The translations under genes and the position numbers were made by a program. 64,000 nt of DNA from Candidatus Methanomethylicia archaeon (GTDB taxonomy: Archaea; Thermoproteota; Methanomethylicia; Culexarchaeales; Culexarchaeaceae), in NCBI GenBank assembly GCA_038727515.1, contig JAVYVS010000002.1, positions 1 to 64,000 of the forward strand, in the 5' to 3' direction. Shown piece after piece: positions 6,320 to 28,827 of this stretch. Every line of letters starts with the position of its first letter. Position 1 is the first letter of the stretch. Below the pieces are notes generated by a model that saw only the letters and a program-made list of their open reading frames with translations, ran no database searches and was not told the DNA's origin.

Positions 6320-8233
6320 CTAACCTATATACGTCCTTAAAGCTGCCTTTATTGCTCCTATAACATTCTCCATCATTATAGTGGGTCTAGCGAATTTCCT
6401 CTTCACATTTTCAATTTTTTCTCCAAGTACATCTATTTTTTCCATATCTATTTCCCCCATACCCATTTTATATGCTTTCCACAGTATTTCAACGGCATAA
6501 GGGTTTATCTCCATAATTCTACAGCATACGGCATCTACTGTTACTGGATTTAAACCTGAAACTATTAAGTTAAGATTAACTGGTTTCCCTAAAACTGGTC
6601 CTAATCCCTCCATTCCAATTATTCCATCAACAATTATTAGATCTTGTTTAACGATTTTATTTATGTACAGTATGATATCCATTAATTTTTCATGTAAAGC
6701 CATCTTCTTTTTATCACTTAATATTCCAAACATATTCTTCATAGATATTGAAATCACTAAATTTTTAACATTACATGTTTTTATCTTTGGTATATTGATG
6801 AAGTAATCAGCATTTAAAACTGTTTTTGGTATATGAATCTTAAATCCAGCAACTTCATGTTCTTCACTTTCATCACGGCTTAGATTTATGAATTCAGCAT
6901 TATTCTTCTCTATAATCTCCATAATCCCACTCTTCTTAACTCTTTTCTCAGCACTTCCAGAATTATTATCAGATTCTACGACAATTATTTTATCCGTGTA
7001 CTTTCTAACAATTTTTAAAACTGCTTCTAGAATACGGGGATCTGTTATAATCATGCCATCTGTATTCTTCCATAAGCATATATTTGGTTTAATAACTACC
7101 TTAGCATTCCTCTGTATATTTAAGCCTCCGAGAAGCTCTATAGATTTTCTAATAGCTCCCTGAATGTCTCCATCAACTTTAACTATAGCTACTTTCTCTC
7201 TATGAGAAACTTCTCTTATACCCACCCCTCCCTCAATTGAATTCACAATCATACTTAATGCTTTAACAGTTTTAAAACCATCTTCAATGCTAATTCTCGG
7301 TTTCTCATAACCATTAATTAAATTTATGAAGTGCATATGTTCTCTAAAGAATGATGGGTGATTTAGAATTTTAAAGTATTGAGTGAATCTATATCCTACA
7401 TAGATAGTCTTTTTCTCTTCACCCTTTTTCACCATCAGTTTATATGGAGAATTAAAGATATTCATTGATATGGATCCTAAATCACCCTTTACATTAAATT
7501 TAAATGTTGGAATTCCATTTGACCATGCTGATGAAAGGATTCCTCTAACACCATTTTCAAAAGTGACGTCAACTTCAACCTTCTCTATTATGGCTTTATT
7601 ATTAAATTTTGGTTTTACCGAATTTACTTTTGTTATTAAACCACATAGATCTTGAGATAAATATATGGCATGTACAAGTAAATCTTCAATTACACCACTT
7701 GTCGTCTGAAAACGAAAATCTGTAGCTGGTTTATATAATAGTAGATTTGTAACCACTTTACCATAAACTTCCCTTACTTCCCCTATTAAACCACTCTTAA
7801 CATATTCAACAGCTTTTTCAAAGCATGGAGTGAAAATATAGTTGTGTGAAGGCATTATAATTAAATTTTCAAATATAGAATTACGTTTTAAAACTTCATT
7901 AATCATTTCAATTTCATCTATACACGTAGCTATTGGTTTTTCACATAAAACATGTTTCCCATGATTTAATGCTTCCACAATCATCTTTGCATGAAATTTA
8001 GGTGGTGTTAAAATCCATACAGCATCAATATCAGCATTCTTTAATAAATGACGATAATCAGTATACTCTTCAATGTTAATTAAATTAAATTTATTTATAA
8101 TCTCCTTAATACGCTTTTCATTAATATCAGCTAAAGCTTTAACTTCTATTTCTGGAATTTTTCGTACTGCTGGTAAATGAAATCTTTTAAGAACACTACC
8201 ACATCCTATTACACCAACTTTCACTTTTCTCAA
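6320..8233 (-). CDS. Gfo/Idh/MocA oxidoreductase fused to a C-terminal DUF362 domain
   Basis: N-half has GVIGCG and GKHVLCEKP. C-half has VVIKPN, TDP, NIPKIKT, SMKNMFG, DGIIGMEGLGP and PVTVD. Confidence 0.85.
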   Translation of the reverse strand: MRKVKVGVIGCGSVLKRFHLPAVRKIPEIEVKALADINEKRIKEIINKFNLINIEEYTDYRHLLKNADIDAVWILTPPKFHAKMIVEALNHGKHVLCEKPIATCIDEIEMINEVLKRNSIFENLIIMPSHNYIFTPCFEKAVEYVKSGLIGEVREVYGKVVTNLLLYKPATDFRFQTTSGVIEDLLVHAIYLSQDLCGLITKVNSVKPKFNNKAIIEKVEVDVTFENGVRGILSSAWSNGIPTFKFNVKGDLGSISMNIFNSPYKLMVKKGEEKKTIYVGYRFTQYFKILNHPSFFREHMHFINLINGYEKPRISIEDGFKTVKALSMIVNSIEGGVGIREVSHREKVAIVKVDGDIQGAIRKSIELLGGLNIQRNAKVVIKPNICLWKNTDGMIITDPRILEAVLKIVRKYTDKIIVVESDNNSGSAEKRVKKSGIMEIIEKNNAEFINLSRDESEEHEVAGFKIHIPKTVLNADYFINIPKIKTCNVKNLVISISMKNMFGILSDKKKMALHEKLMDIILYINKIVKQDLIIVDGIIGMEGLGPVLGKPVNLNLIVSGLNPVTVDAVCCRIMEINPYAVEILWKAYKMGMGEIDMEKIDVLGEKIENVKRKFARPTIMMENVIGAIKAALRTYIG

Positions 8234-8410
8234 ATACTAATGCACCATTATAATTAAAATTCCAATTTAAAATTTAAAACTTAAACTATAAAGATCGGTG
8301 GTTTACAATCATGGAATATCTGTTATCTTCTTAAACATTAAATTATACAGTAACCCAATAGCGCTAGATATCTATAGTTAAAATTCCATTTAAATAATAA
8401 TTTCAATTAG

Positions 8411-8494
8411 CGCCGGGGGCGGGATTTGAACCCGCGAGTCCCCGAAGGGACACAGGCTCTCCAGGCCTGCGCCTTACCGCTAGGCTACCCCGGC
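8411..8494 (-). tRNA. tRNA-Ser(GGA)
   Basis: Cloverleaf with anticodon loop CTGGAGA, long variable arm GTCCCTTCGGGGAC and discriminator G. Confidence 0.96.
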
Positions 8495-8528: not shown

Positions 8529-9528
8529 TTATTTCCACATCTTTGGATATGTTCCTCTCTCCATGATAACTCTTCTAACTTTTACCATTATTCCTCTTTC
8601 TTCATTTAATATTTCTTCACTACTTTTTTGTGAAATTCCAAGAGCCACTAATTCTCCCTTCTTAGTTATTATCGCTACTAAACTTCCACGTTTTATATTA
8701 CTTTCCAGTGTTAGTATTCCTTGCGCTGCTAAATTTGCACCATGACATATGGCGTCTACAGCACTATCTCTTATGGTTATCTTTGGTATTCCTTCAATAA
8801 CTTTTTCAACTGGTAATATTATTTTTCTCAATTCATCCTCTTTTCCTTCTTCAATCCATGTATCATATGCATCTTTAAGTCTATGTAGTGTTGTTAATGT
8901 TTCATCTTCTTTGAATACTCCACTCTTCGTTCTTCTGAGTTCTTGCATATGCCCACCTGTTCCAAGCACTATTCCAATGTCATGGCATAATTTTCTTATA
9001 TATGTTCCCGCTTCGCATCCTATTCTCATTAATACATCTCTATTAGAAATTTCAAGTAAATCAATATAATATATGGTTCTAATTCTCACAACTCTCTTTA
9101 CTGAAGATTTTAATGGAGGTCTTTGATATATTTGTCCTGTAAATTCTTTACATACTTCTCTTATTTCATTTTCACTAACATTTCCATGTAGTCTCATAAC
9201 GCAAATATATTCTTTTGGTGCTTTTGCCATTGCAATCATAGCTTTTGTAGCATTTTCTAAAGCTATAGGTAATACTCCAGATACCTTTGGGTTTCCCCGC
9301 CTAATAAGGCTCTAGGGTCCCGGCATGACCTGCTTTATTTACTTTTAATATTCTCTTTACCCATGCTGTTATTTCATGGCTTGTGGGCCCCGGGGTTTTA
9401 TCTATGTTTATTACTCCATATTTAATGTGTATTTGCATTGGTCTTTCATACGGGTTTATACCATATTCTGGATTTAATGGTTCCTCATCTTTTACCAATA
9501 TTTCCCCTTTATGAAATATATTCTCCAT
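8529..9528 (-). CDS. cbf5: H/ACA RNA-guided pseudouridine synthase Cbf5; spliced CDS = 9528-9312 joined to 9292-8529 (326 aa)
   Basis: Exon 1 has [11 protein letters not shown]...GHAGTL. Exon 2 has [21 protein letters not shown] and a PUA domain. Removing 19 nt restores GTLDPKV and gives a 981-nt frame. Confidence 0.93.
9293..9311 (-). other. 19-nt archaeal bulge-helix-bulge intron in cbf5 pre-mRNA
   Basis: RNA GGGA-CCCU-AG^A-GCC-UUAUUA-GGC-GGGG-AA^A-CCC: two 3-nt bulges around a 4-bp helix (CCCU/GGGG). The intron contains an in-frame UAG. Confidence 0.9.
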
Positions 9529-9578: not shown

Positions 9579-9869
9579 TCATGGTAGTTTTATTTTTACA
9601 CTTTCCTTCATTGCTTCTAATAGATTCATTTCCCGCAATTTTTCTATAATTTCTTCATCTGAAGCTCCAGCTTTTATCTCTATTTTAATTTCTGTTGGTT
9701 CTAAATGCTTTATGTTGCTTCTCCTTCTTTTTACTCCATTTAAGCTTTTTGGCCCTGTTACTAATACAAATTTATCATCCATTATATCTACTATTACACA
9801 TTTCTTACCAGCTTCTCTACCTCTAGTTTTTACACATATCCTCCCCACTTCTATTGCTGGCATACTCAT
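9579..9869 (-). CDS. rpl14e: 50S ribosomal protein L14e
   Basis: [29 protein letters not shown]. Confidence 0.95.
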
Positions 9870-9889
9870 CCCCTCATCAAAAACGCAAT

Positions 9890-10450
9890 TCACCGCCTAT
9901 TAAAAAGTTTTTTGTTTTCAATATACCTTTGTATGAGGTGTATTAATATGTTCGTAACCTCATCTTCACTCCATTTTTCCGTGTTTATTACTATATCATA
10001 TATTCTAAGATCATTTATGTCTATACCATAGTAATTCATGTATCTAATGTAATTACTCTTCTCTCTATCAATAATTTCATTTCTTGCGTCATCTAAACTT
10101 TTACCATCTCTCTTGGCTATCCTCTTTGCTCTTTCCTCTAATGAAGCTGTTAAATATATTCTTAGATCAGCTTTATCTTTTACAATCCAACCTGTTAAAT
10201 GTCCATCTATAACCACATTTCCATTTTCTGCTTCCATTAACGTCCTCTTATCTACTTCATAATCATATTTAGGATCTTTTTCAGCAATTTTATGAAGTTC
10301 TTTTAAACTTATTTTCATTTGTTCTGCTATTTCCCTAAAGCATTTTCCCGTTGAAAAATACCTTAAATTTAATTTTTCAGCTATTCTTTTTGCTTGTGTA
10401 CTTTTCCCAGATCCCGGGGGTCCACTAATTGTTATAACTATTTTATTCAA
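9890..10450 (-). CDS. cmk: Cytidylate kinase (archaeal type)
   Basis: [14 protein letters not shown]-loop; usual position between rpl34e and rpl14e; TTG start overlaps the rpl34e stop. Confidence 0.9.
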
Positions 10451-10713
10451 TGAACCTCCTCTCTTACAGCTTTCTTTATTAATTTTTCTAGACATTTATG
10501 GTCTATGTATCCTCCATATGGTCTATTAGGTCTTTTTGAGCTTTTAGGTATATTCCTCATTTTAACACTTGGTAAATTTGGTACTCCTCTAAGATTGGAT
10601 TTACATATTGCACATTTAGCTATATTCGGTCTTCTATTTTCGTAATGTACTGCAATCCTTCCACCTGGCGTCTTCCTTATAACAATTCTTTTAGATCTTG
10701 ATATCATCTTCAT
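10447..10713 (-). CDS. rpl34e: 50S ribosomal protein L34e
   Basis: RKTPGG, CAIC, KRPNRPYGG. Confidence 0.95.
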   Translation of the reverse strand: MKMISRSKRIVIRKTPGGRIAVHYENRRPNIAKCAICKSNLRGVPNLPSVKMRNIPKSSKRPNRPYGGYIDHKCLEKLIKKAVREEVH

Positions 10714-28717: not shown

Positions 28718-28827
28718 CGCCGGGGGCGGGATTTGAACCCGCGAGTCCCCCAAGGGGACACAGGCTTTCTAGCCCTTTATTATCCTATGGTCTCGAGGCC
28801 TGCGCCTTACCGCTAGGCTACCCCGGC
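28718..28827 (-). tRNA. tRNA-Ser(CGA) with a 25-nt intron at position 37/38 (28767-28791)
   Basis: Near-identical to the tRNA-Ser(GGA) at 8411 except for the anticodon, the variable loop and an insertion ACCATAGGATAATAAAGGGCTAGAA after CTCGAG. Confidence 0.95.

Follow-up and report, generated by a model that had tools for sequence, protein, structure and literature searches.

A probable bulge-helix-bulge intron in the catalytic aspartate codon of cbf5 in Culexarchaeales, and its wide recurrence across Thermoproteota

The cbf5 pre-mRNA of Desulfurococcales and Sulfolobales reportedly carries an intron, said to have been described by Watanabe et al. in 2002. The crenarchaeal cbf5 intron lies between the first and second base of the catalytic aspartate codon, is cleaved between the second and third residues of each bulge, and measures 36 nt in Staphylothermus and 39 nt in Ignisphaera; its removal has been demonstrated through cDNA and EndA cleavage (Yokobori et al. 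2009, PMC2738675). In Haloferax volcanii, the splicing endonuclease also processes the HVO_1309 mRNA, which contains a bulge-helix-bulge (BHB) intron in its 5′ UTR (PMC7714728). Reviews from 2020 and 2023 hold the cbf5 intron to be the sole coding-sequence intron removed by archaeal tRNA-splicing enzymes (PMC7714728, PMC10485636), and the latter describes it as limited to a small group of related archaea (PMC10485636). In this work we analyze a cbf5 locus in a 64,000-nt stretch of DNA (the window; positions 1 to 64,000 of contig JAVYVS010000002.1) from a Candidatus Methanomethylicia archaeon, in which an earlier note, made from the letters alone, had proposed a 19-nt intron at the same codon. 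The position of this insert and the cleavage rule that delimits it match those published for Crenarchaea (PMC2738675), and the Culexarchaeales cbf5 intron is very probably the already known one, here found outside its published crenarchaeal range. The paper describing Culexarchaeia contains neither "cbf5" nor "intron" in its text, and no relevant paper came up when the literature was searched for cbf5 introns under the newer phylum names.

The host genome (1.59 Mb in 12 contigs, 93.6% complete, 33% G+C) was searched as a whole and placed in the family Culexarchaeaceae of the class Methanomethylicia, phylum Thermoproteota. Its nearest named relatives, Ca. Culexarchaeum nevadense (same family) and Ca. 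Culexmicrobium cathedralense (same order), settle the suspicion that it belongs outside Sulfolobales and Desulfurococcales. Read from the window letters, the minus strand at the locus runs ...GGT CAT GCC GGG ACC CTA G/AGCCTTATTAGGCGGGGAA/A CCC AAA GGT ATC TGG..., with slashes marking the borders of the insert, which sits between the first and second base of the catalytic Asp codon (G/AC) in the motif GxxGTLDP. The list of open reading frames (ORF) reports two separate frames: ORF 9301-9528, of 75 aa, which ends in GTLEPY followed by TAG at 9303-9301, and ORF 8529-9239, of 236 aa, which opens with an ATG at 9239. Pfam assigns the former to the DKCLD domain, and matches frame 8529-9290 to TruB_N from profile position 17 of 149 only, followed by TruB_C_2 and PUA. 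Because the domains run on from one frame to the other, the two ORFs are, as the earlier note had claimed, consecutive parts of one Cbf5 and not two genes. Removal of 9311-9293 yields a 981-nt frame encoding a 326-aa Cbf5 with the universal motif, and reading without removal terminates at the in-frame UAG within the intron after 75 aa; both predictions, together with all coordinates and numbers given for them, proved correct. The features of the locus, and of related loci discussed below, are collected in Table 1.

Table 1. Location of the cbf5 intron, its structural elements, its genomic neighbors and related introns (window coordinates unless a genome and contig are given; a slash marks a splice junction)
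Feature	Location	Strand	Basis or remark
cbf5 exon 1	9312..9528	-	ATG at 9528 to Asp-codon G at 9312; 72 codons + 1 base
19-nt BHB intron of cbf5 (AGCCUUAUUAGGCGGGGAA)	9293..9311	-	sequence, fold, relatives
cbf5 exon 2	8529..9292	-	opens with AC of Asp codon, then PKVSGVLP...; stop codon 8531-8529
Predicted spliced cbf5 junction	CTAG/ACCCAAAG	-	exon joining
Whole BHB motif of cbf5	9289..9321	-	fold and covariation
BHB outer helix	GGG 9321-9319 with CCC 9291-9289	-	A9318 unpaired, or A.C mismatch with C9291
BHB central 4-bp helix	CCCU 9317-9314 with GGGG 9298-9295	-	MFE fold
BHB 5′ bulge AGA	9313-9311	-	MFE fold
BHB inner stem GCCU/AGGC	9310-9307 with 9302-9299	-	MFE fold
BHB loop	9306-9303	-	MFE fold
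BHB 3′ bulge AAA	9294-9292	-	MFE fold
KOW-domain ribosomal protein (L14e-like), upstream neighbor of cbf5	9579..9893	-	Pfam, ORF list
Cytidylate kinase, preceding KOW-domain ribosomal protein	9890-10495		Pfam, ORF list
L34e-like ORF	10447-10713		identity inferred by eye from translation
tRNA-Ser(GGA), directly downstream of cbf5	8410..8494	-	tRNA scan
pyrG (CTP synthase) 22-nt BHB intron	G000:C7:4418-4439 (= L176:219-240)	+	outside window
hypD 23-nt BHB intron	G000:C2:203838-203860 (= L175:339-361)	+	139.8 kb beyond window end
'Heimdallarchaeota'-related cbf5 insert loci	L238, L239, L244, L251-L253, L090		genomes G403, G410, G416, G420, G423, G426

The first exon encodes the DKCLD domain and the residues GHAGTL, and the gene is embedded in the customary archaeal cbf5 context of a KOW-domain ribosomal protein, cytidylate kinase and an L34e-like frame. 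Downstream, the tRNA-Ser(GGA) gene adjoins a 637-aa ORF (6320-8233, minus strand) in which, according to Pfam, a GFO/IDH/MocA oxidoreductase is fused to a DUF362 domain. The 236-aa ORF and its ATG lend some plausibility to an arrangement in which the message works mainly in its unspliced form, producing the 75-aa DKCLD fragment, the 236-aa C-terminal protein or both, with splicing rare or conditional, and partial or regulated splicing would be compatible with the sequence. We regard this as very unlikely, given that the catalytic Asp is found in neither piece, that the stretch from the junction to the ATG at 9239, 17 residues that are conserved, would go missing, and that a start codon is absent at the junction.

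The minimum-free-energy (MFE) fold was computed on the 61-nt stretch 9335-9275. In the predicted fold, the borders of the insert fall at two 3-nt bulges with a 4-bp helix between them, and cuts placed behind the second bulge base on either side excise precisely 19 nt, create GAC and join the exons in frame, with a single exon-side mismatch or slip. The modeled intron RNA is thus a near-canonical BHB, as the earlier note had read it. Since this host uses GAC in place of GAT for the Asp codon, its exon-side helix is imperfect, with an A.C mismatch or a slip of 1 nt. The fold energy of the stretch is unremarkable on its own (z = -1.14) and was dropped as support for the intron; the case therefore rests on the comparison between genomes.

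Taken together, the sequence data very probably reflect a genuine archaeal BHB intron in the cbf5 pre-mRNA, homologous in position, and in all likelihood by descent, to that of Sulfolobales and Desulfurococcales. The anatomy of the locus, its conservation and covariation and the presence of the enzymes were observed directly, and from them we infer cleavage and ligation in vivo. In the proposed mechanism, exon bases from the Gly-Thr-Leu codons (GGG-A-CCCU) and the Asp-Pro codons (C/U-CCC) would pair with intron bases to yield the two 3-nt bulges and the intervening 4-bp helix; a heterotetrameric (alpha-beta)2 endonuclease would cut after the second base of each bulge; and RtcB would ligate the exons, so that the GAC codon of the catalytic aspartate would arise only at ligation. 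An unspliced cbf5 mRNA would give only the 75-aa fragment, and the production of active Cbf5 must, on this mechanism, depend on both EndA and RtcB.

The host genome encodes the components that such a pathway would use. It contains two EndA paralogues: an alpha protein of 188 aa encoded at L111:1474-2040 (minus strand), which keeps the catalytic Tyr/His/Lys and has the catalytic subunit of A. pernix as its best PDB match (3P1Z_B, 2.9e-48), and a beta protein of 174 aa encoded at L112:1258-1782 (plus strand) and lacking the catalytic His. In its Crenarchaea-specific loop (CSL), the alpha protein also has a lysine that aligns with K44 of A. pernix, a residue required for broad substrate specificity (PMC3241643). 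The natural reading of these sequences is a splicing endonuclease of the crenarchaeal (alpha-beta)2 type, which would assemble as a heterotetramer. RtcB, the ligase that would seal the 2′,3′-cyclic phosphate to the 5′-OH end, is present as a 486-aa open frame (605.8 bits), and Nop10 and Gar1 are likewise encoded. ARAGORN predicts introns in about a dozen tRNA genes of the host. Within the window, its intron search predicts a tRNA-Ser(CGA) with a 25-nt intron at 28718-28827 (minus strand), absent from the default tRNA scan.

In every fetched cbf5 locus, tblastn was used to locate where exon 1 ends and exon 2 begins. An inspection of cbf5 in sister genomes, which the earlier note had called for, showed the gene to be interrupted at the same base in each of the 12 Culexarchaeales genomes, by inserts of 19-29 nt. 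These observations bear on the possibility that cbf5 is here a broken gene, either a pseudogene or the product of a sequencing or assembly indel, and that the hairpin is coincidental. Public gene calls are what such a reading could invoke: the Culexarchaeales-type cbf5 entries (P0001-P0015), relatives of the host included, are truncated products of 213-280 aa without DKCLD. Nonetheless, the insert recurs at the same base throughout the order and in dozens more genomes with variable length and compensatory stems, both exons are stop-free and 71-86% identical at the protein level within the family, a search of the host genome found no second TruB-type catalytic domain, and Nop10 and Gar1 are kept. 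Furthermore, a gapped pattern able to match either allele had as its sole match an independent JGI metagenome contig, in which the 19 nt are unchanged and a single SNP lies close by; no intron-less allele was matched, and the check for DNA lacking the 19 nt hence came out in favor of the intron. The 236-aa ORF of the window is encoded by 14 recorded contigs from four sources (NCBI, JGI, Logan and ENA). A broken gene is accordingly close to refuted, and slightly less probable still than a functional unspliced message. The cbf5 intron is instead systematically mis-annotated as a short gene in public metagenome-assembled genomes (MAGs).

The BHB pairing was evaluated on an alignment of 47 distinct cbf5 intron regions. 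Paired bases occupy 89.7% of the cells, and changes on both sides of a pair affect 54 cells, compared to 18.5 in shuffles; all slid pairing registers score far worse than the BHB register. The central helix (C-G to U-A) and each of the four pairs of the inner stem show compensatory changes. The structure also leaves an imprint on the coding sequence. The Thr-Leu codons, which supply the exon strand of the central helix, read ACCCTA in 65 of 77 intron-bearing cbf5 genes and in none of 65 intron-less ones, and this hexamer stands out in a host genome of 33% G+C; the codon bias shows that the structure is under selection. In the bypass of T4 gene 60, a hairpin and an in-frame stop lie right after the take-off point of the ribosome. 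The cbf5 insert resembles that system in its stable hairpin and in the stop that follows the would-be take-off point in frame. Ribosomal recoding, in which translation would bypass or frameshift past the 19 nt and the RNA would stay intact, is the least probable account of all, since matching take-off and landing codons are absent, the covariation follows BHB geometry (a 4-bp helix with flanking 3-nt bulges) beyond that of a mere hairpin, the inserts vary in length between 11 and 76 nt, and the homologous crenarchaeal insert is removed from RNA, as cDNA and EndA cleavage demonstrate (PMC2738675).

Beyond Culexarchaeales, the BHB intron of cbf5 can be traced through much of the phylum. Within Methanomethylicia, three further families (f4, f7 and f8) have the insert, which is absent from families f5 and f6; cbf5 of family f9 is an uninterrupted open frame of 339 aa. 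In the Bathyarchaeia clade of the Cbf5 protein tree, 25 of 30 genes contain an insert of 17-41 nt, and intron-less genes are nested among the intron-bearing ones, pointing to losses. A phylum-wide sample of 401 genomes contained many interrupted cbf5 frames. Sixty of these genomes were read at the nucleotide level, and every cleanly aligned interrupted case has its insert at the same G/A, with lengths of 11-76 nt; the alignment of one case (L174) was ambiguous. In the sample as a whole, the insert occurs in about 46 families of Thermoproteota, many Bathyarchaeia among them, and in this sample it was not found in families f10, f19, f26, f31, f37, f56 and f58. The sequence common to several classes at this site comprises both the flanks and the intron ends (GAGCC...GGCGGGGAAA). 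At the extremes of length, the shortest insert (L125, genome G044; GGGCTGGGGAA) spans 11 nt and leaves no room for an inner stem, and the longest (L130, genome G125) spans 76 nt. A different kind of interruption was observed in another genome of the phylum (L169; G052:C11:292017-294371, minus strand), where cbf5 lies in one 797-aa open frame and about 1.5 kb separates the match to query residues 1-119 from that to residues 96-253; judging by its sequence, this insertion looks like an intein.

Complete genomes in the sample offer a point of reference. Two from family f12 contain a 36-nt in-frame insert and are presumably Staphylothermus marinus and S. hellenicus; one from family f44 has a 39-nt insert, the length published for Ignisphaera aggregans; and two without insert are, we assume, Vulcanisaeta distributa and Pyrolobus fumarii. 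Under these inferred names, the genomes reproduce the published intron pattern. Class-level labels beyond those of named MAGs are likewise provisional in part. In 7 of 26 genomes related to a MAG labeled 'Heimdallarchaeota', the same cbf5 Asp codon is interrupted by 26-41 nt and the central helix co-varies (CACU/GGUG, CUCU/AGAG); one of these 7 (G403) encodes two EndA paralogues. The 'Heimdallarchaeota' Cbf5 sits on a long branch of the protein tree, in which its position is weakly fixed.

The genome-wide search for further BHB introns that had been suggested identified two candidates besides cbf5, in pyrG and hypD. A strict scan of the 1.59-Mb genome for BHB folds whose removal joins ORFs returned only 14 matches, cbf5 among them, a small number that adds to the case against a chance fold at cbf5. 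The best-looking of the others (C1:104944-104983) corresponds to two adjacent cas-type genes according to Pfam, and a second (C1:219271-219308) has no family support; both were set aside as chance matches. Relaxed scans returned 20 and 450 raw matches, of which all 20 and the 84 of the 450 with both flanking helices were read by eye; besides cbf5, pyrG and hypD, the matches read were judged, on that by-eye reading, to be neighboring genes, rRNA or noise. Relaxed introns of the BHL type may escape structural scans of this kind.

The pyrG intron falls within the N-terminal GGVxSSxGKG motif of CTP synthase (GGVLSSVGK/G), and the Pfam match of the second exon, to CTP_synth_N, begins at position 16 of 265. 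Each of the 10 pyrG-bearing Culexarchaeales genomes contains an insert here (21-28 nt) with compensatory stem changes, and none of the 20 other pyrG loci of the class that were read has one at that site. In several genomes of families f7 (G038, G026, G036, G028, G024) and f3 (G008, G011), pyrG has 1-6 in-frame stops and is 60-90 nt longer than the query, a pattern that suggests further small introns at other pyrG sites in these lineages. The hypD intron splits the CGTH motif (MHVCG-T/HE); the Pfam match of exon 2, to HypD, begins at position 29 of 351, and the fold of the intron has z = -3.0. Inserts of 20-28 nt at the same site are found in family f2, in 2 of 3 genomes of f3 and in all 9 genomes of f7, and are absent from Culexarchaeum, f4 and f5 among the loci compared. 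An intact second hypD paralogue is located on contig C11 of the host. From their sequences, at least three protein genes of the host (cbf5, pyrG and hypD) appear to need tRNA-type splicing.

The supposition in the earlier note that the cbf5 intron might be older or more widespread than described is thus strongly borne out. The sequences surveyed indicate that its distribution is much wider, and its age probably much greater, than the literature holds. On the unrooted Cbf5 protein tree, the intron trait requires at least 4-8 changes. A bolder reading is that the intron is ancient, predating the split of the Thermoproteota classes and possibly reaching back to an ancestor common with Asgard, that it descended vertically with repeated losses, and that it marks one of at least three EndA/RtcB-dependent genes in Culexarchaeales; we advance it tentatively, and judge its chances to fall somewhat below even. 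If it is true, protein-catalyzed mRNA splicing would be a regular part of gene expression in Culexarchaeales. The occurrence of the intron in most sampled Thermoproteota families and in some relatives of the 'Heimdallarchaeota' MAG means that the published dating of its gain needs revising. In addition, the ACCCTA codons illustrate how an RNA structure can fix synonymous codons in an essential gene, and candidate introns in cbf5, pyrG and hypD of a single genome make the extent of EndA/RtcB-dependent expression in archaea testable.

Compared to the cbf5 intron of Desulfurococcales and Sulfolobales, that of Culexarchaeaceae is alike in gene, insertion point, BHB-type fold, cleavage after the second bulge base, two-subunit EndA and size range. 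It differs in its host, a lineage of Methanomethylicia outside the published surveys, and in having a motif that is near canonical, whereas most crenarchaeal cbf5 motifs are unconventional (PMC2738675). With the BHB introns of archaeal tRNA and rRNA, which are cut by EndA and joined by RtcB, it shares the structural signal and, presumably, the enzymes, but the substrate here is the coding sequence of an mRNA, in which codons build part of the motif and synonymous sites are thereby locked. The HVO_1309 mRNA offers an analogy in that it too is processed at BHB sites by the splicing endonuclease; its intron, however, is part of an untranslated leader, and its host is a euryarchaeon whose enzyme is of the alpha2 type, whereas the cbf5 intron interrupts a catalytic codon. 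In eukaryotes, the HAC1/XBP1 mRNA undergoes stress-regulated splicing by Ire1 and RtcB. The resemblance to that system is again one of analogy, encompassing the non-spliceosomal, protein-catalyzed excision of a short mRNA intron, joining of the tRNA-ligase type and a change of frame, but Ire1 is a different endonuclease, and the two systems are without homology of site or structure.
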